Assembly (NCBI GenBank): GCA_963820825.1
Contig: CAWGBN010000006.1
Coordinates: forward strand, 640,001 to 704,000
Direction: 5' to 3'
Length of the DNA stretch: 64,000 nucleotides
Source of the DNA: Vulcanimicrobiota bacterium
Lineage (GTDB): Bacteria > Vulcanimicrobiota > Vulcanimicrobiia > Vulcanimicrobiales > Vulcanimicrobiaceae
The notes under the pieces were generated by a model. That model was given only the letters and a program-made list of their open reading frames with translations, did not search any database and was not told where the DNA came from. The translations under genes and the position numbers were made by a program. Of this stretch, positions 11,088 through 31,073 are shown piece after piece (the first letter of the stretch is position 1; each line of letters begins with the position of its first letter).

Positions 11088-12653
11088 GTGATGGCGCGTA
11101 GTCCGGCGAGTTCGTTCGCGCAGCGCGTGCAGCGCAGTGAGTTTTTGGGCGGCCTCGTCTCTTCGTTGACGCTGGCGGGCTGTGCGCGCTCCGCCGTTCC
11201 AACCATCGTGCCCGCGGCGACCGTTGCGGGCAATCGCGCCGGCAAACCTCGGGTTGTTATCGTCGGCGCCGGAGCGGCCGGCGTCACCTGCGCCTACCGA
11301 CTGTATCAGGCGGGGATTGCCGCCCGCATCTTCGAGGCGAACACCCGGGCCGGCGGCCGTACCTGGACGCTGCGGGGATTCTTTCGCGACGGGCAGTACG
11401 GCGAGCACGGCGGTCAGCTCATCGCTACGTCGCAGCATCGCGTGCGGCGGCTCGCCGCCGAGCTCGAGCTGCGCCTCATCGACCTCAACGCGCTCTATCC
11501 ACGCAACGCGGTCGACACGTACTTCATCCACGGTCAGCGCTACACGCACGACGAAGCGGCGCACGACTACGACCGCTACGTTTACGAGCCGCTCAACCGC
11601 GCCGCAAAGGCGGCCGGCTATCCGACGACGTTTTACCGTCACACTCGGGCCGGAGTCGCCCTCGACCGGATGAACGTCGACGAGTGGATAGAACAAAACG
11701 TGGAAGGCGGCGCCGGCTCGAAGATCGGCAAGCTCTTGCTCTTGGCCTGCGTGAGCGAGTATGGCGGCGAATCGCACGCTCAAAGCGCGCTCAATCTCAT
11801 CTATTTGTTCTCCGGGATGCGCCATGGCCGGCTCGACCTCTCGGGTGCCGGCGAGGATGACAAGTATACGATCGATGGCGGCAACGACCGGCTCGTTGCG
11901 CGAATGGTTGCGAAACTTCCGCGCGGGTCGGTGACGCTCGGTGCCGCACTCGAAGCGCTCGCGCGTACCTCCGACGGCTCGTATCTCTGCACGTTCGCCT
12001 CCGGCACGACGACCAAGACCGTTCGCGCCGACGTCGTGGTCCTTGCGATTCCGTTCACCGTCTTGCGGCAGGTAGACTCACGCGCGGCCGGATTCTCGGA
12101 TCGTAAGCGCCGCGCGATCGCCGCGCTCGATCTCGGTTCGAATGCAAAGGTTCACCTGCAATTCACCTCACCGTATTGGTTCAAAGAGCATTTCAGCGCA
12201 ACGGCATACGCCGACGACCTCTACCAAGACTGTTGGGACGCGAGCATCGGGCAGCGCGGGCGGGCGGGAATGCTCGTCTGTTTTCCGGGCGGTGCGGAGG
12301 GCATGCGATATACCGGCGACGCGCACGGCGCCGCGCCCAGCCACACTGCGCAGCGCTATCTGCGATCCCTCGAGCCGTCGCTGCCGGGGGCGTTACGAGC
12401 CTTCAACGGTATCGCCTACCAAGATTTTTGGATCGGCGATCCGTTTACGCGCGGCGCGTACGCTTACTACAAAACCGGTCAATACTCGACGCTCTGCGGC
12501 GTGGAGCGCCTCGCCGAAGGAGGCGTCCACTTTTGCGGCGAGCAGACCTCGCTCGAGTGGCAGGGTTACATCAACGGCGCCGTCGAGAGCGGCGAGCGCG
12601 CCGCGCACGAGATCTTGCGCGACATCGGCCTGCCGGCGCGCCTCGAGATTTAG
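11088..12653 (+). CDS. Flavin monoamine oxidase family protein, probably an exported lipoprotein
   Basis: VVIVGAGAAG, RAGGR, HFCGEQTS, GYINGAVESG; LAGC lipobox. Confidence 0.88.
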   Translation: MMARSPASSFAQRVQRSEFLGGLVSSLTLAGCARSAVPTIVPAATVAGNRAGKPRVVIVGAGAAGVTCAYRLYQAGIAARIFEANTRAGGRTWTLRGFFRDGQYGEHGGQLIATSQHRVRRLAAELELRLIDLNALYPRNAVDTYFIHGQRYTHDEAAHDYDRYVYEPLNRAAKAAGYPTTFYRHTRAGVALDRMNVDEWIEQNVEGGAGSKIGKLLLLACVSEYGGESHAQSALNLIYLFSGMRHGRLDLSGAGEDDKYTIDGGNDRLVARMVAKLPRGSVTLGAALEALARTSDGSYLCTFASGTTTKTVRADVVVLAIPFTVLRQVDSRAAGFSDRKRRAIAALDLGSNAKVHLQFTSPYWFKEHFSATAYADDLYQDCWDASIGQRGRAGMLVCFPGGAEGMRYTGDAHGAAPSHTAQRYLRSLEPSLPGALRAFNGIAYQDFWIGDPFTRGAYAYYKTGQYSTLCGVERLAEGGVHFCGEQTSLEWQGYINGAVESGERAAHEILRDIGLPARLEI

Positions 12654-15600
12654 GCGGGAAGCTCCGAGCGGGTCTGGATCGTATGGGCGTGTTGCTCGAA
12701 CGAACAGAGCAGGTTCGCCAACGCCATCTCTTCTTTCGTGCGGCAGCGGATGTCGAGCAGGCGCGGGCTGCACACGAGCACGGTCGCGGCTCGTGCGCGC
12801 GAAATCGCAACGTTGAATCGATTGCGTTCGAAGAGGAATTCGACGTTACGAGGTACGTCCTCTCCGCTCGACGTCGCCATCGAGTAGAAGACGATCGCCG
12901 CCTCCTGCCCCTGGAATTTGTCGACCGTTCCGACCCGTACGCCCGTTTCCGAGTCGACCTCGATACCGGCGTCGACGAGCTTGGCCGCAATCAGTTTGCG
13001 CTGGGCGTTATACGGCGTGACGACCACGATATCGCGTGCGGTCAGCTTGCGGGAGATGCCGGCGAGGACCGGAGGCTGCGAATCGACGACACAGCCTTCG
13101 GCAATTAACGGCAGAATCAGCCGGACGACTTCATTCGCCTCCTCGAGCGAAGAGGCTCCGTTGCCGCTATGCTCGACTCCCACGAAATAGAGCCCGGCAA
13201 GCTCTCGTGCGCCGGCCGCTACGCAGTGGATTGCGGTGGCCGGTGCGGCGTGGAGCCGGTTCTCGTACGTCGCATCGGAGACAAACGCGCAGATCTCGGG
13301 CTGCATGCGGTAGGAGACGTCGAGAAAGATCCCACGGCTGGGCCGAACCGTGCGATCCTCGCCGAGCAGATGTTCGAGAATGGAACTCTCGGCGCGCGGC
13401 GGATGCGTGCCCTGACTGACCTGTGCGAGTTGCGAGGGGTCGCCGAGCAGCACGACGTTCTTCGCGCATAACGAGTTCGCCAACGCGTCGGCAAGCGCGA
13501 CCTGTCCGGCTTCATCGATGAAGAGATAGTCGAAAGCCCCCTCGAGCTCTTCACGCGCGCAGAGCCATCCAGTTCCCCCCGCGAGTTGGTAATCGGGAGC
13601 GGCGAAGGGGTTATTTGAGTCGACCGACGTTATGAACGGTCTCTCGAGCGGCGACAGATACTTCGATCCTGGATTGCTCGACGTGTGCTTGTACAGACCG
13701 CGGAACGTTCCGCCGCGTTCGAGCATGCAGCGCTCCACGCACTGTAACAAATTGTGGATGGCTTTGTGACTGGTGCTCGTAACGGCGACACGCTTGCCGG
13801 CCAAGAGCAGGTCGCAAATTACTTGAGAGCCGATCGTCGTCTTGCCGGTCCCCGGCGGCCCTTGAATGAACGCGTAACTGTTATTTAGCGCGCCGACCAC
13901 GGCCGAGACCGATGCGGCGCTCACGGTGGCAGGCTGACATCCCTCCGTCGCCGGCGGTGTCGAGGTAAGGCGAGGGTCGCGACCGGTGAGCAGATCGTCG
14001 GTCGCCGGATGATCCTGCGCGAGTCTGCCGGCAACGAACGAGGCGGCGATTCGCTCGAGGGCGTCGCGCTGCACGTGGGAGAGAAACGGCTTGTCCGGAA
14101 TGAGTTCGTGAACGTCTTGCGCGGCGTCGAGCGCGAGCGACGTCTTGAGCCCCAACAGATTGGCATCCGTATCGAGCGAAACGATCGTTCCCGCTCTGGA
14201 TTTCGTACGCGGGTTGACGACGGCATCGCCCACCCCGAGCGCATAGCGCTGTTCGGGAAACTCGAACGTGTAGACCGTGCTGCGGGGTCCAGGGTGCGGC
14301 GCGACGTCCTCGCGTAAGCGCAGCCCTCCGATGGCGCCGCGATCGAACTCGGCGAGCCGGTCGACGTTTTCGCAGCGGTCGAAAAAGGCCCACCACGCAG
14401 GTTTATCTTCGCGTCGATGGTAGCCCATGAGTCCGCCGAGCAGGTGATGGACGGGCTGGCTGGGATCGGCGAGCAGCCGCCGCTCGAGGTCGCTGCGCTT
14501 GGCTTCCTCGCGCTCGTCTTTGCGGCGCTTTTCGCAATCGGCGCAGCCTTCCATAAACTCGGGATGGCAGCGCGCTTCGGGAAGCTTGACGGGCCGCAGC
14601 GGAAGCGCTCGATCGAACTCGCGCTCGGCTTCAACCCGGCGCGCGAGCAGCCACTCGCGTAGCAGAAACGTCGAGCGGCAGTCGTCGGAGTTATAGCGCT
14701 CGATATCGTCGAGTATCCGCTGGTCGCGTTCGACGAGCCAGCGTTCGAACATAACGATCGATTGATCGCCCTTCTTGACCTCGGTTTCACGAGTGAGATC
14801 GTAGAAGCACTCGAGATTTTTAAGACCGTAGCGCTCCTCCGAAATCGCAAGCGTCTGCCGGACCACCGCGAAGAGATCGACGAGCACCTCGCCGCGAAGG
14901 AGATCGTCGACTTCGTTCTCGCGCGTGCAGTGCCGTTGTGCCAGGCGGCGCAGTGCCTCCTTTTCATAGGCGGCATAGTGGAAGACGTGAAGATCGGGAT
15001 AGCGACGGCGCCGATCGACGATGAAGTCGATGAACGCTTCAAACGCACGCTTCTCTTCCTCGCGATCCAATGCCCAGAACGAACGAAAGGGCGGATCCTC
15101 GTCCGGCATCCAACAGCCGAAGAGGTACTCCAACGCCCGCCCCGGTTCGTACAGCGGATCGCCCTCCATGTCGAAGAAGATATCGCCCTTCGCAGGCTCC
15201 GGAAGCAGCGTAAAGCCGAGCGGTGGCACGTGCTCGAGTAATTGATAGACCGGCCGCCCGCTTTTGCGCCCTTGTACTTGAAGTGAGGCTTGCCGCCGAA
15301 GCGTCTCGTAGGTCTGCGGATTCATGCCGGCAGGTCGTTGCGTCTCCGAAGCCGAGGCGAGCTCCGCAACGCGGGCGATGCCGCTCGACTCCAGCTTGGC
15401 GATCTGATCGCGTCGTATCCGAGCGACGATGCTCAAGTGGTCGTCGCGGCGCCGTCGTCCCTCGCAGTCGGCGTCCCACGGGCAGATCGCGCAGTGCTTG
15501 ACTTTGAAGGGATACTCGCGCGGTTCCGCGCCTTCGGCCGAGACGGCTTCGTCGGAAAACTCTACGAACCGGCGTTTGAGCCGAAGGTAATAGGCCATGT

Positions 15601-16162
15601 AATCGTGCAGCCGGAACGCCTCTTCCTCACCGTCGCCGAAGACGACGTGGCCGAATTTCGGCGGCGTTTGCTGTAGGCGTTCGAGGTGTTCGCTATAACT
15701 GCAGAGCTGAACGAGGTAGTATGGACGGGCCGAGAGCCCAAGCTTCGTGTCGATGACCTCATAGCTATAGTTGCCGAGGTTTGACGGCTCGTCGACCCGC
15801 CGCAGAAAATCGGCGTGGCCGAGGAAACTGCCGTCAAAAAGCGTCGCCTGATAAATGATCTGCGCCCCGCCGCGCATCGCTTCGAGCGTGGCGTTTTCAG
15901 CTCGCCGGTACGACTCGACGCCGGTTTTGGGACGGGTGAACTCGACGACCGCGCCGGGATAGAGCGATCGCATCCGCTCCAAGTAGGCGCGTTCGTGTTC
16001 CTCACCTTTTCGCCGTAAGAGATCGGCTTGCGGATCGTCGATGCTCGGGCGCTCGAGCCGCCCTTGCGCGACGAGCGTCTCGAGGTCGGTCAGGCGTTTG
16101 CACTCGAGATAGTCGTTGAGGTCGCTCGCGGAGTAAATGAGCTGCCCGTCAAGCCGCTGCAT
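12650..16162 (-). CDS. TM0106-family RecB-like nuclease / RNase H-like / SF1 (DNA2/NAM7) helicase
   Basis: YSASDL, GHADFL, DTKL, FFDMEGDP, QGPPGTGKT, IDEAGQ, GTVDKFQGQEA, RFNVAISRA. Confidence 0.92.
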   Translation of the reverse strand: MQRLDGQLIYSASDLNDYLECKRLTDLETLVAQGRLERPSIDDPQADLLRRKGEEHERAYLERMRSLYPGAVVEFTRPKTGVESYRRAENATLEAMRGGAQIIYQATLFDGSFLGHADFLRRVDEPSNLGNYSYEVIDTKLGLSARPYYLVQLCSYSEHLERLQQTPPKFGHVVFGDGEEEAFRLHDYMAYYLRLKRRFVEFSDEAVSAEGAEPREYPFKVKHCAICPWDADCEGRRRRDDHLSIVARIRRDQIAKLESSGIARVAELASASETQRPAGMNPQTYETLRRQASLQVQGRKSGRPVYQLLEHVPPLGFTLLPEPAKGDIFFDMEGDPLYEPGRALEYLFGCWMPDEDPPFRSFWALDREEEKRAFEAFIDFIVDRRRRYPDLHVFHYAAYEKEALRRLAQRHCTRENEVDDLLRGEVLVDLFAVVRQTLAISEERYGLKNLECFYDLTRETEVKKGDQSIVMFERWLVERDQRILDDIERYNSDDCRSTFLLREWLLARRVEAEREFDRALPLRPVKLPEARCHPEFMEGCADCEKRRKDEREEAKRSDLERRLLADPSQPVHHLLGGLMGYHRREDKPAWWAFFDRCENVDRLAEFDRGAIGGLRLREDVAPHPGPRSTVYTFEFPEQRYALGVGDAVVNPRTKSRAGTIVSLDTDANLLGLKTSLALDAAQDVHELIPDKPFLSHVQRDALERIAASFVAGRLAQDHPATDDLLTGRDPRLTSTPPATEGCQPATVSAASVSAVVGALNNSYAFIQGPPGTGKTTIGSQVICDLLLAGKRVAVTSTSHKAIHNLLQCVERCMLERGGTFRGLYKHTSSNPGSKYLSPLERPFITSVDSNNPFAAPDYQLAGGTGWLCAREELEGAFDYLFIDEAGQVALADALANSLCAKNVVLLGDPSQLAQVSQGTHPPRAESSILEHLLGEDRTVRPSRGIFLDVSYRMQPEICAFVSDATYENRLHAAPATAIHCVAAGARELAGLYFVGVEHSGNGASSLEEANEVVRLILPLIAEGCVVDSQPPVLAGISRKLTARDIVVVTPYNAQRKLIAAKLVDAGIEVDSETGVRVGTVDKFQGQEAAIVFYSMATSSGEDVPRNVEFLFERNRFNVAISRARAATVLVCSPRLLDIRCRTKEEMALANLLCSFEQHAHTIQTRSELPA

Positions 16163-19070: not shown

Positions 19071-19814
19071 CTACACGCCGATCTGGGCCAAGATCGAAAA
19101 GTAGCGCTGGGTCTTGGGATTCTCCCACCAGTTTGCAACGATCGCTTCGAGCTCGGGTAGCGCGCGCAGCGCACCGACGTGCTCGTTGATCGCACGCGGA
19201 TTCGGTAAGGGCGCTTCAACCGCTGCGTGCAGCTTCTCGATCATCGCGTGCGCAGCGTGATCCTGAGGAAGCGCGGCGTGAAGCTCGTCGCGGGGAACGG
19301 CCGCCTGCGCACGCAGCAGCGGAAGCAGCGTCTCAGCCTGCGTGATCAGTTCCTCACCGGCGACCATTCCGGTATCGTCGGCGTCTTCGATCTCCTTGCG
19401 CAGGTCGTCGGTCGAGCTCGATGTTGCGGCCGCAACGCTTTCGAGCACGCGGCCTAACCGAGCGTTGACGTCGTCGGCGACCGGCATGAGCGCGTCGTTT
19501 CCGACCACGCCGAGCAGCGCGCGCGCATCGATTGCCGAGACGACCGTCGCTCCATCGAGCCGCTGAATCACGACGTTGCAGGGAAGCAAGAGCCCAAGCT
19601 GCGGTTCGGCCTGCAGCGCGCGGTGGGCTAACTCGGGATTACACGCGCCGAGAATTCGGTACGGCCGGAGCTCCGCACCGATCTTTTCCTGCAGCGTTCT
19701 GCCGACGTCGATCTCGCAAAGCACGCCGAAGCCTTCGTTGCGCAGAGCGGAGCGCGCGGCTTCGATGGCACCGTCGTAATCCAGCGGCGTCGTCACCGAT
19801 TTCCCGTACTTCAT
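19071..19814 (-). CDS. DUF302 domain protein with C-terminal helical extension
   Basis: GFGVLCEID, YRILGACNP, GLLLPCNVV. Confidence 0.85.
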   Translation of the reverse strand: MKYGKSVTTPLDYDGAIEAARSALRNEGFGVLCEIDVGRTLQEKIGAELRPYRILGACNPELAHRALQAEPQLGLLLPCNVVIQRLDGATVVSAIDARALLGVVGNDALMPVADDVNARLGRVLESVAAATSSSTDDLRKEIEDADDTGMVAGEELITQAETLLPLLRAQAAVPRDELHAALPQDHAAHAMIEKLHAAVEAPLPNPRAINEHVGALRALPELEAIVANWWENPKTQRYFSILAQIGV

Positions 19815-19914
19815 GGCTCCTATGCTGCGGCCTTGCCCCGGCAAATGCCTCCGTCGGAAGATTTTTGAGCGGCGGTTGATGGCTTCGCTCCGGTCCGAGC
19901 CGTACCATGAGGGC

Positions 19915-21336
19915 ATGCTTGCGGCGGTCTTGAGCGCGGGACTCCACACCTGGGCGTGCACGGTCGGGAAGATCAAGGCGCCCTCCACCTGCGGCACCTA
20001 CACCGTCTACGAGGACCGGGCAGCGGGAACCGGCCGCACGATCGATCTCAAGTTCATCGTGATCCACGCGATGCATCGCTCGAATCGCGCGATCGCTTGG
20101 AATCCCGGCGGTCCCGGCGCCTCGTCGACGGCGGCCGCCGAAACGATCGTCGACGGCAGCTTTGCACGCGAATTGATGATGCTGCGCGACCGGTACGACA
20201 TCTTGCTCGTCGATAATCGCGGGGCGGGCGGCTCGGCGCTGCAGCAATGCGATTTTGCACCGGCCGATCGCCCGCAGCTCTACTTCGCCCAGCTCTGGCC
20301 CGACGAGCTCGTCAGCCGTTGTCGCGCGCGTCTTGCCGAGCGTGCTAACTTGAGTCTCTATACGACCTCGATCGCGGCAGACGACTTGAACCAGCTGCGA
20401 GCCGCGCTCGGCTATCCCAAGCTCGTGCTCGACGGAGCCTCGTATGGAACGCGCTTCTATCTCGTTTACGCGCGCAGGCACCCCGAGAGCGTCGAGAGCA
20501 TCGTGCTCGACGGCGTCGCACCGCCACACTTCCTCATCATTCCGCTCGAAGACGCGCGCGGCGCGCAAGATGCGATGACGAAACTGATCGCCGAATGTAA
20601 GGCCGACGCCGGCTGCAACGGGCATTTTCCCCAGTTGGACCATCATTTCGATGCGCTCGTGCGCCGTTTCGATCGAGCCAGCGTCGTCGTGCCGCTCGAG
20701 AAGGCGAAGACGGGGCGCGTGGCGCGCGTCCGGCTTTCCAAGGAAGTCTTTGCCGATCGCCTTCGGCAGCTGCTCTACTATCCCGAATCGGCGAAGTATG
20801 CGCCGTTCGTGATCGACCGGGCCTATCGGGGCGATTACGGACCGCTGGCGATGATGGTGAACGTGCTCACGCTTGGCTTCGGCCAGATCCTCGCCGAGGG
20901 CCAGAATCTCTCGGTGACGTGCGCCGAGGACATACCGTTCATTACCGAGAGCGCGGTTGCGACCACGAGCGCAGACTCGTTCGAAGGCGACGAGCGCGTT
21001 CGCGCGCAGCAACGCGCCTGCCGCATGTGGAGCGTCGAGGCGGTGCCGGCGAGCTTCAACGAACCGGTGCGCAGCGATGCGCCGATCCTGATGATCTCCG
21101 GCAGCGACGACCCGACGAGTCCGCCGCAATACGCGCAGCGGGCGCTTCCCTATCTTCCAAATGCTCGAATCTTGTTGATGAAGAACGCCGGGCATGCGAC
21201 GGAGACGACCTGTTCCGACGCGCTGATCGTCGCATTCGTCCACGCCCAAAGCGCGCAGGGGCTCGACCTCAGCCGCTGCGGCGGCGCGTATCGCCGGCCT
21301 GCGTTCGCGACCTCGATGGCCGGCTTCGGGGATTAG
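19915..21336 (+). CDS. Alpha/beta hydrolase with TAP-like C-terminus
   Basis: NPGGPG, DNRGAG, GASYG, VLDG, SDDP, AGH. Confidence 0.88.
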   Translation: MLAAVLSAGLHTWACTVGKIKAPSTCGTYTVYEDRAAGTGRTIDLKFIVIHAMHRSNRAIAWNPGGPGASSTAAAETIVDGSFARELMMLRDRYDILLVDNRGAGGSALQQCDFAPADRPQLYFAQLWPDELVSRCRARLAERANLSLYTTSIAADDLNQLRAALGYPKLVLDGASYGTRFYLVYARRHPESVESIVLDGVAPPHFLIIPLEDARGAQDAMTKLIAECKADAGCNGHFPQLDHHFDALVRRFDRASVVVPLEKAKTGRVARVRLSKEVFADRLRQLLYYPESAKYAPFVIDRAYRGDYGPLAMMVNVLTLGFGQILAEGQNLSVTCAEDIPFITESAVATTSADSFEGDERVRAQQRACRMWSVEAVPASFNEPVRSDAPILMISGSDDPTSPPQYAQRALPYLPNARILLMKNAGHATETTCSDALIVAFVHAQSAQGLDLSRCGGAYRRPAFATSMAGFGD

Positions 21337-21378
21337 GATCGAAGGACCAACGGAGACGCCGATAAAATGGAGACGGGC

Positions 21379-21954
21379 ATGTCGAACATTGCGTGGGAGT
21401 CCGATTACCAGGGCGCGCTCGAACGCGCGCGTGCCGAGCGAAAGTTCGTCTTTCTGGACGTCTTCAACCCTGGTTGAGGGGGATGCCAAGCGCTGGATAC
21501 CGTGACGTATCCGCAGACCGAGGTCGCCGAAGCGATTCTCGCCCATAGCATTCCCGTTCAATTCGACAACTCAAAGAAAGAGAACAACGTTTTCCTGCAC
21601 GGCATCCACCACATCTGGACGCCGGACGTTCGCATTCTCTACCACGACGGGTTCGAGCTCTACCGCTGGGATGGTTTCCTGCCGCCTGCGGAGTTCGCGG
21701 CGCGAACGCTCTGCGGGTTCGGTCTTGCCTATCTTCGACTGAAGCGCTTCGAGCAGGCCGAGGAAGTCTACGTCGACGTCCTCAAGCGCTTCTCGACGAC
21801 CTACGCGGCGCCCGAGGCGCAGTATTATCTCGGCGTCACGCGTTACCGGCGAGATCCGGACAGCGACGAGCTATTGACCCAGTGGGCAAATCTCCGCTCG
21901 CGCTATCCCGAGAGCGAGTATCGCGTCAAGCAGTCGTTCAAAGATTTTCCGTAG
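21379..21954 (+). CDS. Thioredoxin-fold protein with TPR-like tail; predicted selenoprotein (UGGC, Sec at codon 33)
   Basis: GGAG RBS and ATG at 21379, in frame through TGA 21475-21477 into ORF 21502-21954: ...FVFLDVFNPG-U-GGCQALDTVTY...WTP. Confidence 0.82.
21493..21516 (+). promoter_or_regulatory. Candidate bacterial SECIS hairpin
   Basis: GGATAC/GTATCC stem with CGTGAC loop beginning 23 nt after the TGA. Confidence 0.55.
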
Positions 21955-22498
21955 GCCTGCGAAGCGACGACTCGATCGACGCGCGCAGCTCGGACGACGG
22001 GGCGTTCCAAAGATCGGTAAACGACTTGAGGATGCGGGCCGTCAGTCCCCAGATATGGTGCCCGCCGTAATCGAAGGCATAAAGCGTTCGTCCGAGCGTC
22101 TTGCTTCGCGTGGTATCCTCGCGCACGGCACCCGGTTCGACGATCGCTGCCAGCGGAACGGTAAAGACGCCAACGGTCTCGGTGTGATCGATCGTCAACG
22201 GCGCGCCGGGATCGAGAATGCCGACCATCGGGGTAACGAGAAAGCGGTTGGCGACCTGCCGTACGCCGGGGAGTTGCCCGACGATGCGAACCCGATCCGA
22301 AGCAACTCCGACCTCCTCGTGCAGCTCGCGCAGCGCCGTGACCGCCGGATTGCCGCCGTCGCCCGGATCGGCGATCCCGCCGGGAAGCGCGACCTGGTTT
22401 GCATGGCGGCGAAGATGCCCGGCGCGCTCGATAAAGACGACGCCGTGCGGAGCGTCGGCGAAGACCGCAAAGATAACCGCCGCGTCTCTCCACTCCAT
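21938..22498 (-). CDS. NUDIX hydrolase, CoA pyrophosphatase type
   Basis: RAGHLRRHANQVALPGG, ALRELHEEVG, IWGLTA. Confidence 0.9.
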   Translation of the reverse strand: MEWRDAAVIFAVFADAPHGVVFIERAGHLRRHANQVALPGGIADPGDGGNPAVTALRELHEEVGVASDRVRIVGQLPGVRQVANRFLVTPMVGILDPGAPLTIDHTETVGVFTVPLAAIVEPGAVREDTTRSKTLGRTLYAFDYGGHHIWGLTARILKSFTDLWNAPSSELRASIESSLRRPTENL

Positions 22499-22527
22499 CG
22501 TGTGCCTTTGCGGCGGATTGCCGGCCC

Positions 22528-22959
22528 TTAGGGAGTGGCGGTCGAGGTGCTTGCGCGGATTCGCGCGACCTGAGCCGGGCTTACCGTAGAAGCTTGATTG
22601 CCCCACGCGGTGCGAATGTAGGTGACGACGGCGGCGACGTCGGCGTCCGAAAGCCAATTTCTCCAGCCGGGCATCCCGCCGGTGTAGCGATGACCTCGTA
22701 CCGTGATGTCAACGAGCATCCCGTTGAGGGTCGCAGCGATTGCGGCGCTCGGATCTTTCGCCGTGACGTGCGGATTCTTGGCCAGTGGAGGAAACGTTCC
22801 GATAACGCCTTCGCCCGTTGCCTCGTGGCAGATGGCGCAACGGTCTTGGTAGATTGCGGCACCGTTCGGTGCGGCATCGGCCGGTCCGTCGCGGAGCAAT
22901 GCGAACGCGCATGCGACAGCGATGGAAACGGCGGCGAGCATGCTCTTCGTACTCATCAT
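22528..22959 (-). CDS. Monoheme cytochrome c
   Basis: Signal peptide, CAICH, FPPLA, MP axial Met. Confidence 0.9.
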   Translation of the reverse strand: MMSTKSMLAAVSIAVACAFALLRDGPADAAPNGAAIYQDRCAICHEATGEGVIGTFPPLAKNPHVTAKDPSAAIAATLNGMLVDITVRGHRYTGGMPGWRNWLSDADVAAVVTYIRTAWGNQASTVSPAQVARIRASTSTATP

Positions 22960-29136: not shown

Positions 29137-29610
29137 TCACGGTCCCTTACTTGCAAGGCGAAACCGGCCGGCCTTCGGGCACATTTCATCGCACCAGGCA
29201 GTTATACGGTCGCGTATCTGATCGCGAATGATTCGCGCCTGCGCAAGTTGCTGGTCGCGCGAGCCTCGAAGGGCGGCTGGATCGGCGAAGCTCCAGTGGA
29301 GACGCTGGGTTACGCCGGGAAAGATCGGGCAACGCTCGGCGCTGGCTTCGTCACAGACCGTCACGACATACGCGAAGAGCTTGCCTTTCTTAAACAAGTC
29401 GAACACGCTCTTCGTTTGGTTGTGCGAGATATCGATGCCGACCTCACGCATTACCTCGACGGCGAGCGGGTTTAGTTCGCCGGGTTCGAGCCCCGCGCTT
29501 ACGGCTTCAAAGTCGTCGGGGCAGATGCTGTTGAGAAACGCCTCCGCCATTTGGCTGCGCGCTGCATTGTGAACGCAGACGAACAGGACGTTAAGCTTAC
29601 GCGACTGCAT
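29137..29610 (-). CDS. arsC: Arsenate reductase (LMW-PTP type)
   Basis: FVCVHNAARSQMAE, VTVCD, CP, HWSFADP. Confidence 0.88.
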   Translation of the reverse strand: MQSRKLNVLFVCVHNAARSQMAEAFLNSICPDDFEAVSAGLEPGELNPLAVEVMREVGIDISHNQTKSVFDLFKKGKLFAYVVTVCDEASAERCPIFPGVTQRLHWSFADPAALRGSRDQQLAQARIIRDQIRDRITAWCDEMCPKAGRFRLASKGP

Positions 29611-30310
29611 CCGACCCTCCGCCATGGCGAAGAAGAACTCCATCGGCGTCGCGCCGCTCGAGCGGCGCAATCCATTGGAATGACACCGTCGCGCAGACGG
29701 CTCCGAGCAGCTGGGCGAAGATAAATTGGGGCGTGTCCTGCGGGCGAATTCCCGCGAAGGTATCGGAGAGCGAACGCGCGATCGTTACTGCCGGGTTGGC
29801 AAACGACGTCGACGACGTGAACCAGTACGCGGCGACGATATAACTAGCGACTGCAAATGGAGTAAAGGCCGAGCGGAAGCGAACGCATCCCCAAATCACG
29901 AGGAGCAAGCCGAACGTCGCAACGAACTCGGCAAACCATTGAGTGGGACCGGCGCGAGCACGATGGGACGCAAAGAAGACCGGAAGCCCGAACATCGTAT
30001 TCGCCGCCGCGACTCCGGCAACCGCGCCGCATATCTGCGCCCCGACGTACACCGGAACTTCGCTCCAAGGCAAGCCGCCGCGCAGGGCATCGGCAAGCGA
30101 CACGGCCGGATTGAAATGCGCGCCGGAGATCGGTCCAAGTGCGGCGATCAGACACATGAGGACGCCGCCGGTTGCCAGCGTATTGGCGAGTAATGCGATG
30201 GCGAGGTTACCGCCGGCGAGCCGCTGGGCCATGATACCGGAGCCGACAACGCCGGCGAGCAGGAAGGCGGAGCCCAGTGCCTCGGCGGCGCTTCGCCTAA
30301 GAAGCGTCAT
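29597..30310 (-). CDS. aqpS: MIP/aquaglyceroporin, putative arsenite channel
   Basis: SGAHFNPAV and SFANPAV motifs; lies within the ars operon. Confidence 0.85.
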   Translation of the reverse strand: MTLLRRSAAEALGSAFLLAGVVGSGIMAQRLAGGNLAIALLANTLATGGVLMCLIAALGPISGAHFNPAVSLADALRGGLPWSEVPVYVGAQICGAVAGVAAANTMFGLPVFFASHRARAGPTQWFAEFVATFGLLLVIWGCVRFRSAFTPFAVASYIVAAYWFTSSTSFANPAVTIARSLSDTFAGIRPQDTPQFIFAQLLGAVCATVSFQWIAPLERRDADGVLLRHGGGSDAVA

Positions 30311-30744
30311 TAGACGACGCAGCAGGAGCGCGTTTCGTCGCCCACCGAGCAGCACGTCGTATTGGCATCGTCCCGATGGTCCGTCTCGTCGTGGACGGTG
30401 TAGATCTCCCAACGGCGGCCTTCAGGATCGACAGCCCAGACTTTTGTTTGAATGGCGTAGCAGCACGTCTCTTCGCGCTCAACGGATGATGCGAGACCAG
30501 TGCGCTCCAGCCGCGCGATCGCGCGTTCCACGTCGTCCGCGCTCTCGACGTACACGCCGTAATGCGCATCTCGGGTTGGTGAAACCTCATCGGTTAGGTC
30601 GAGGGCGAGCTCGAGTCCCGGCTGATCCGTGATGAACAACGCGTAGTCGCCGAGCAGCTTCGTTGGTTTCGCGTCGAGCAAGGTTGAGTAGAACTCCACA
30701 CTCTTGGCGAGATTTACGGTGGCGAGGTTTAGGTGCGTTCTCAT
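30310..30744 (-). CDS. arsI: ArsI/CadI glyoxalase-family protein (putative C-As lyase)
   Basis: RTHLNL, HYGV, ETCCYAIQTKVW..DPEG..WE. Confidence 0.82.
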   Translation of the reverse strand: MRTHLNLATVNLAKSVEFYSTLLDAKPTKLLGDYALFITDQPGLELALDLTDEVSPTRDAHYGVYVESADDVERAIARLERTGLASSVEREETCCYAIQTKVWAVDPEGRRWEIYTVHDETDHRDDANTTCCSVGDETRSCCVV

Positions 30745-31073
30745 GCAGGCACTTTCTGGCGGAAGACGGAGGTCAACGCATCGCCGAGTCGCTCGTACGC
30801 CCCTGGCGCAAGGCGGTAATAGACCCAGGTGCCGCGGCGTTCGCACGTGACCAGCTCGGCTTCGCGCAAGACGCGAAGGTGATGCGATACGGTCGGCTGA
30901 TTGAGCGGAAGAGCATCGGTGAAATCGCAGACACACACCTCGTGCTCGGCGCGATCGAGCGCAGCAAGAATGGTCAGACGGTGAGGATCGGCCAGCGCCT
31001 TGAAAAGCTCGGCTTCCGTCCCCCGGTCCACGTGCGGAATATGAGCGGGCGGGCAGCACCGTTGCATCGACAT
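30741..31073 (-). CDS. arsR: ArsR/SmtB repressor
   Basis: FKALADPHRL, CVCD, QPTVSHHL, RRGTWVYY. Confidence 0.92.
   Translation of the reverse strand: MSMQRCCPPAHIPHVDRGTEAELFKALADPHRLTILAALDRAEHEVCVCDFTDALPLNQPTVSHHLRVLREAELVTCERRGTWVYYRLAPGAYERLGDALTSVFRQKVPA

Follow-up and report, generated by a model that had tools for sequence, protein, structure and literature searches.

Does the TGA triplet at codon 33 of a 191-codon frame in a Vulcanimicrobiota genome end translation, or does it specify the selenocysteine (Sec, U) of a thioredoxin-fold protein? The locus lies on the forward strand at 21379..21954 of the window, i.e., the whole stretch of 64,000 nucleotides that was analysed (positions 640,001 to 704,000 of contig CAWGBN010000006.1, assembly GCA_963820825.1). 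The genome studied is 2.98 Mb in size and 85% complete. A preliminary description, made from the letters of the window, had proposed the second answer. Sequence comparison indicates that the mid-gene stop almost certainly codes for Sec and that the gene encodes a real, routinely mis-annotated protein with a predicted redox function.

Reading frame and the overlooked N-terminus

The features relevant to decoding are given below with their coordinates in the window, strand and basis.

21379..21954 (+): selenoprotein gene, 191 aa, thioredoxin-like domain followed by C-terminal TPR-like helices (reading frame, Pfam, model)
21369..21372 (+): Shine-Dalgarno-like GGAG, 6 nt before ATG 21379 (sequence)
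21379..21474 (+): codons 1–32, missed by gene callers; first helix and central thioredoxin-fold strand (conservation, model, coding score)
21475..21477 (+): UGA, predicted Sec codon (U33) that opens the U-G-G-C motif (TGA in 76/76 near and 72/72 readable distant loci)
21484..21486 (+): Cys36, putative resolving cysteine (76/76 near loci; Cys in 56/60 alignment rows)
21495..21512 (+): predicted bacterial SECIS hairpin with a 6-bp stem and a 6-nt loop, G at loop position 2 then U (conservation, geometry)
21502..21504 (+): GTG in the hairpin loop, a probable false start for a 150-aa “TPR protein” (ORF list, database homologs)

With TGA translated as U, the frame runs from ATG 21379 to the TAG at 21952-21954 and comprises 191 codons; its sole in-frame TGA is codon 33 (21475-21477), which is followed by G-G-C. 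The elements named in the preliminary description are all present in the sequence: the ATG at 21379 with its ribosome-binding site, the in-frame TGA and the continuation to 21954, the WTP (residues 80-82), and the APEAQYYLGV (residues 144-153). Its placement of the TGA at the first Cys position of a CxxC motif also stands, as Cys-containing homologs align at the column of U33. An alternative in-frame ATG at 21367, which would add four residues, has no spaced Shine-Dalgarno sequence; the start at 21379 is favoured because it has the spaced GGAG and agrees with the N-termini of homologs. The coding score of codons 1-32 is 0.65 vs 0.67 downstream of the TGA.

Standard ORF calling yields 21502-21954 alone, a 150-aa product starting at GTG 21502. 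This product forms the basis of a different reading, in which the TGA is a true stop that separates a 32-aa peptide from an independent 150-aa TPR protein, and in which the frozen bases around the GTG are a ribosome-binding site or start signal. Database entries lend this reading some support, in that the 120 listed of 354 close homologs are all 142-160 aa long and cover 74-79% of the query; where named, they are called TPR, TolA-binding or hypothetical proteins. On the other hand, Cys-containing homologs are single ORFs, and the 150-aa product would, according to the structural model, miss the central strand of the fold.

The surroundings of the gene were considered as a clue to its function and rejected, there being no conserved neighbours and no operon or pathway that could be deduced from them. 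No neighbour seen in the window is shared by more than 4 of 75 near loci; the most frequent cluster of neighbours is found in 16/75 near and 11/74 distant loci, leaving antisense shadows aside. An alpha/beta hydrolase gene (19813-21336, +) precedes the selenoprotein gene in the same orientation, with 42 nt between the two. From the other side, a NUDIX gene (21938-22657, -; CoA pyrophosphatase-like, below cut-off) runs towards it and shares the final 17 bases of the selenoprotein gene; each of these neighbours is linked to it in only 3-4 of 75 near loci. A promoter scan at the locus found none, and no terminator-like site was seen after the gene. Elsewhere in the window, positions 29137-31073 hold what by eye we take to be an arsenic-resistance-like cluster (ArsC-like, aquaporin-like, glyoxalase-like and ArsR-like ORFs), and 12650-16162 (-) holds a 1170-aa ORF that, by its appearance, is presumably a RecB-type nuclease-superfamily I helicase fusion.

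Conservation of the TGA codon and of the hairpin

The first line of evidence for Sec is the conservation of the TGA codon. The near set comprises 90 loci (L020-L109), 88 of which cover the TGA column; 87 of these have TGA, and the lone TGC is a misaligned piece of a frameshifted copy. After exclusion of two partial loci (L090 and L109), the frameshifted one (L108) and apparent duplicates (L092-L102), 76 loci remain, all of which have TGA (76/76). Thus, relatives keep TGA rather than TGC or TGT at this position, as the preliminary description would lead one to expect. Named relatives are mostly Vulcanimicrobiota/Eremiobacterota, the nearest being Ca. Cybelea (identity up to 91%). Within the 76 loci, codons 3-32 are conserved as protein while synonymous change is free, the 28 codons upstream of the TGA are open in 74 and not open in two, and codons 34-39 likewise keep their amino acids with synonymous change. 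The latter would be intergenic if the TGA were a true stop, and their conservation as amino acids argues against that reading. Across the phylum, a full-length match was found in 45 of 201 genomes, with one internal TGA in each; the position of the TGA was confirmed directly in four previously unexamined genomes among these. As to the frameshifted copy, it is an ortholog (L108, G032:C2:301278-301839) split by the frameshift, which reflects either decay or an assembly error.

A distant clade, approximately 35-38% identical to the UGGC protein, leads to the same result. Of 435 confirmed metagenome loci, 80 were kept; 72 were readable by pattern and eight were not, and all 72 readable loci have TGA, in U-I-G-C with a single U-M-G-C. 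It should be noted that the pattern used for fetching these loci fixes the amino acids under the hairpin; the independent evidence there consists of the synonymous sites and the TGA. A broad alignment of 115 sequences proved too divergent to serve for scanning DNA by pattern. More broadly, 1,460 representatives of a 50%-clustered library match at E up to 0.001. Among the best 150 of them, 59 are 180-225 aa long; CxxC stands at the motif in 48 of these 59 and is absent from the other 11, which indicates that not every member of the family is redox-active. Such pairing of Sec and Cys at one alignment column is the usual hallmark by which selenoproteins are recognised computationally. The same best 150 matches also hold an observation that speaks for a true stop, namely that 54 of the 62 matches of 140-170 aa begin, as judged by eye, just past the motif.

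The second line of evidence is the hairpin. The one reported in the preliminary description, with its loop 23 nt after the TGA, is indeed present at 21495-21512. The published bacterial SECIS model comprises a stem of 4-16 bp, a loop of 3-9 nt with G in its first two positions, a distance of 16-37 nt from the UGA, and a minimum free energy of at most -7.5 kcal/mol (PMC13188914). Compared with these published criteria, which are loose, the hairpin has suitable geometry, with -12.8 kcal/mol for 21478-21524. Hairpin stability alone was rejected as evidence: folding z-scores for four windows at the hairpin are not significant (0.66, 0.33, -1.94 and -1.31), and 26,060 of the 60,315 TGA triplets in six frames of the whole genome have a hairpin of the loose bacterial SECIS geometry. 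The significance of the putative SECIS lies in its conservation, not in its stability.

This conservation is pronounced. All six stem pairs are standard in 148/148 TGA loci (76 near and 72 distant), these loci being related, so that they represent few independent pair-change events, and all being of the TGA form. In the 76 near loci, synonymous entropy is 0 at codons 40-44, three of which are four-fold degenerate, and the very next codon, Pro45, takes all four codons. Where stem pairs do change, pairing is kept: pair 23-36 changes from A-U to G-C or G-U between the clades, pair 25-34 from A-U to G-U, and pairs 21-38 and 22-37 from G-C to G-U, once each. G-U pairing occurs in 11 loci, and the changes at the three pairs other than 23-36 are G-U-compatible; the double-sided change at pair 23-36 amounts to one event separating the two clades, at a site where Asp and Gly are also exchanged. 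Loops of the near clade have the core GUGA, those of the distant clade GUUA or GUCA. A search with the hairpin consensus across the genome returned this locus only.

The pattern of conservation bears directly on the proposal that the frozen bases serve initiation at the GTG. The frozen sites run past the GTG to codons 43-44, matching the 3′ strand of the stem, and the distant clade has GTT or GTC at the position of the GTG while its hairpin is unchanged. A true stop followed by a separate TPR protein is, in our opinion, very improbable.

A further alternative treats the TGA as uninformative, the gene being a pseudogene, the codon a sequencing error, or UGA reassigned genome-wide to Trp or Gly. 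The frameshifted copy in one relative (G032) and the two near loci that are not open upstream may be cited in favour of decay or error, and one database homolog (P0128), translated with W at the column, in favour of reassignment. Against decay and error, the TGA recurs in 148 loci, which stem from many assemblies and from two clades far apart; moreover, relatives' contigs from the RNA runs X5, X6 and X17 cover this codon, and no difference is listed for it. These contigs derive mostly from relatives, no run holding more than 0.22 of the words, and are silent on expression level and strand. Reassignment is at odds with the use of TGA as an ordinary stop in this genome (the selB ORF ends normally, and so do the listed ORFs) and with the presence of a tRNA-Sec with a TCA anticodon. 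The alternative appears essentially refuted by conservation. Sec is, with high confidence, predicted to be incorporated at codon 33.

Selenocysteine machinery and selenoproteome

The preliminary description had suggested that the organism uses Sec and had named selA, selB, selC and selD as the genes to look for. All four are in the genome, each above its curated cut-off: selA at C6:420060 (434.6 bits), selB at C6:432088 (295.6 bits), selC, the tRNA-Sec with a TCA anticodon, at C6:467130 (67.8 bits), and selD at C6:57397 (391.2 bits). The machinery is thus complete, and a second selenoprotein, FdhA, with a TGA followed by HAP, signifies independent use of Sec. SelD itself is the Cys form. The four genes are dispersed rather than arranged in one operon, with selA and selB 12 kb apart; in relatives from families f2 and f3, the latter two lie side by side. 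ARAGORN also reported, at C8:455475-455550 on the minus strand, a tRNA-like gene whose anticodon has four bases (ctga) and to which no amino acid is assigned.

FdhA, a formate-dehydrogenase-type molybdopterin subunit, is encoded outside the window at C6:350419 on the minus strand (L151); its in-frame TGA is followed by HAP, with a stem-loop about 18 nt downstream. A genome-wide scan for TGA codons that have a Sec-type motif and are flanked on either side by coding-like hexamers passed 116 candidates, among which the thioredoxin-TPR gene ranks first and FdhA fourth, while the others among the 45 best of the 116 look like ordinary gene ends or antisense frames. Thus, the selenoproteome appears to consist of two proteins, the thioredoxin-TPR protein and FdhA, as far as a crude scan of a genome 85% complete can tell.

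Among 41 relatives, selA is present in 40 and selB in 39, whether or not they carry the gene; ortholog-level matches occur in 19 of the 41, all of which have selA and selB. These tallies include one unpublished genome (G036), which adds one selA, one selB and no orthologs. Co-occurrence with the sel genes was rejected as evidence: it does not discriminate, given that nearly all relatives have selA and selB anyway.

Fold and predicted function

Two further features concern the protein.

21616..21624 (+): W80-T81-P82, predicted position of the thioredoxin cis-proline loop (conservation, model)
21685..21945 (+): helical TPR-like region, residues ~103-189, five helices (sub-cut-off Pfam, profile matches, model)

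Pfam Thioredoxin_7 (PF13899) matches residues 5-71 with 34.8 bits (cut-off 27), and Thioredoxin_2 (PF13098) falls just under its cut-off of 27 (25.6 bits, E 1.6e-5). TPR_16 and TPR_6 match residues 106-179 below their cut-offs, and profile searches add YbgF/CpoB-like TPR matches to the C-terminal part. The AlphaFold model, built from 115 sequences (pLDDT 97.2, pTM 0.92), bears out the earlier proposal of a thioredoxin fold with a TPR-like tail, as it contains a cDsbD-like thioredoxin domain and five C-terminal helices. Helix H10-20 and strand E23-29 precede the motif, which lies at the start of helix H34-43; W80 and P82 are at least 90% conserved in the 115 sequences, and P82 precedes strand E83-87. 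The model thus resembles a thioredoxin fold in having UxxC at the N-terminal end of the helix that follows the central strand, and a conserved proline loop. The best solved folds found by Foldseek are C-terminal DsbD domains; a profile search found no solved structure that matches both the thioredoxin and the TPR parts. Neither a signal peptide nor a membrane segment was seen in the 191-aa protein by hydrophobicity with a 19-residue window: the N-terminus is not hydrophobic, and the maximum KD value is 0.87. The protein is therefore probably cytoplasmic.

Our main reading, to which we assign a probability of roughly 0.8, is that of a 191-aa cytoplasmic selenoprotein with Sec at codon 33, which would reduce disulfides while its TPR helices bind a client. 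Decoding by SelB and SECIS and the dithiol chemistry of thioredoxins are both well established. By analogy, SelB loaded with Sec-tRNA would bind the hairpin that closely follows the UGA, and Sec would be inserted at codon 33. Located where the active-site helix begins, U33 would attack a client disulfide, the chemistry being deduced from thioredoxins; C36 would resolve the mixed bond to yield a U33-C36 selenenylsulfide, and the cell would re-reduce it, probably through an NADPH-linked thioredoxin reductase. The TPR helices may bind a protein client or partner and thereby give specificity. The main role is probably that of a disulfide reductase or isomerase, a cytoplasmic disulfide reductase with a client-binding TPR tail being the most likely form.

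The main functional rival is a selenoprotein that works chiefly as a chaperedoxin similar to CnoX/YbbN, whose TPR part would retain unfolded clients or attach to a chaperone, while its Sec would protect client thiols under oxidative stress. The chaperedoxin CnoX has the same layout, with TPR helices after a thioredoxin domain; E. coli YbbN (3qou) ranks ninth in the Foldseek search (E 7.5e-6), and some homologs retain the fold without the first Cys. Yet the match to YbbN is poor overall (TMq 0.37, rmsd 11.8, 282 aa vs 191), the thioredoxin domain resembles cDsbD (TMt up to 0.77), and CnoX/YbbN is absent from the NCBIfam matches of 115 members. A predominantly chaperone-like role is accordingly judged unlikely.

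A more speculative and rather improbable proposal is that the strictly Sec-only UGGC subclade, which would supply one of just two selenoproteins in these genomes, constitutes a selenium-dependent chaperedoxin or client-specific reductase of soil Vulcanimicrobiota. Vulcanimicrobiota are generally regarded as aerobic. If true, the proposal would give a large family hidden as “TPR proteins” an uncharacterised function, and would counter the view that redox selenoproteins are kept mostly by anaerobes.

Irrespective of function, the analysis puts right a systematic mistake in annotation: database entries of the Sec forms, filed under TPR or hypothetical proteins, nearly all lack the catalytic N-terminus, and NCBIfam release 20.0 yielded no model able to recover them. 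It also adds a distinct UGGC subclade in Vulcanimicrobiota (45/201 sampled genomes), with Sec machinery across the sampled relatives, and supplies a well-sampled SECIS alignment with natural Sec/Cys pairs for testing. A literature search for selenoproteins of Vulcanimicrobiota or selenocysteine in Eremiobacterota found no paper, and for WPS-2 none of the 20 listed out of 67 records was relevant; subscription papers may cover the clade, as may Haft & Tolstoy 2025 and the MAG survey of Deng et al. 2026.

Comparison with known systems

The closest solved fold for residues ~1-110 is cDsbD (PDB 1vrs, 2fwf; E 1.8e-6, TMt 0.77), which is also matched by profiles. cDsbD is the periplasmic domain of a membrane electron carrier, whereas the 191-aa protein stands alone, has no hydrophobic segment and carries TPR helices. 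Membership in DsbD was rejected, with 21.7 bits against an NCBIfam cut-off of 330 and neither a membrane segment nor an export signal. CnoX/YbbN (PDB 3qou) shares the order of a thioredoxin domain and TPR helices; the protein is, however, about 90 residues shorter, and membership was rejected on the poor superposition, 15% identity and the absence of an NCBIfam match. The NCBIfam models Trx_VPGUxxT_one/two, seleno_TsoB and trx7_PDZ_seleno give weak matches to the thioredoxin part, but scores are far from the cut-offs (23.2 vs 275, 20.5 vs 805) and motifs and architectures differ.

The appropriate comparison is the “thiol:disulfide interchange protein” family, a selenoprotein family catalogued for about twenty years. 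It is listed with pfam13098, UxxC and the representative WP_011366075.1, and attributed to Kryukov & Gladyshev 2004 (PMC13188914); a deep-Sep supplement gives the sequence of the representative, with FNPG-U-IGC, WTP, APEA and a helical tail (PMC12013277). Zhang et al. 2006 report three members, whose hosts, Syntrophus aciditrophicus and two species of Geobacter, are anaerobes (PMC1794560). The UGGC protein has UxxC in a Thioredoxin_2-type domain, as the family does (with PF13899 above and PF13098 just under cut-off). It shares with the representative a length of ~190 aa, FNPG-U-x-G-C, VxYP after the motif, WTP, G-x-x-PP, APEAxYxxGV and YPxS, as well as an architecture in which the same helical tail comes after the thioredoxin domain, the motifs being matched by eye. 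The UIGC clade, too, has this hairpin at this distance. P0181, a stand-in for WP_011366075.1 that matches it along its length by eye, is 33% identical to the 191-aa protein (P0001) over 155 columns (E 1e-29); the Cys form of Geomonas (WP_135869447.1) is 34% identical over 178, and identities to stand-ins of the WP_011366075.1 clade amount to 33-38%. No full-length model for the family is among the NCBIfam release 20.0 matches of 115 members.

The differences are the motif, UGGC here vs UIGC, and the hosts: the survey members occur in anaerobes, and the UGGC clade in soil Vulcanimicrobiota. In a quick tree built from 48 selected rows, in which 20 of the 45 inner branches are open, the UGGC subclade is separate and well supported (SH-aLRT 97), and Cys forms lie between it and the Geobacter-type UIGC clade. 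Two loci of the same phylum (L121 in G041, L122 in G044) have the Geobacter-type UIGC form instead of UGGC, and the phylum thus holds both Sec subclades. Copies in MAGs labelled Acidobacteriota or Alphaproteobacteria (L072, L078 and L087, also L069) are nested in the Vulcanimicrobiota UGGC clade and reflect either horizontal transfer or misbinned contigs. The locus represents neither a new kind of recoding nor a new selenoprotein family; on sequence comparison, the gene is a member of the catalogued family, in a distinct UGGC subclade.
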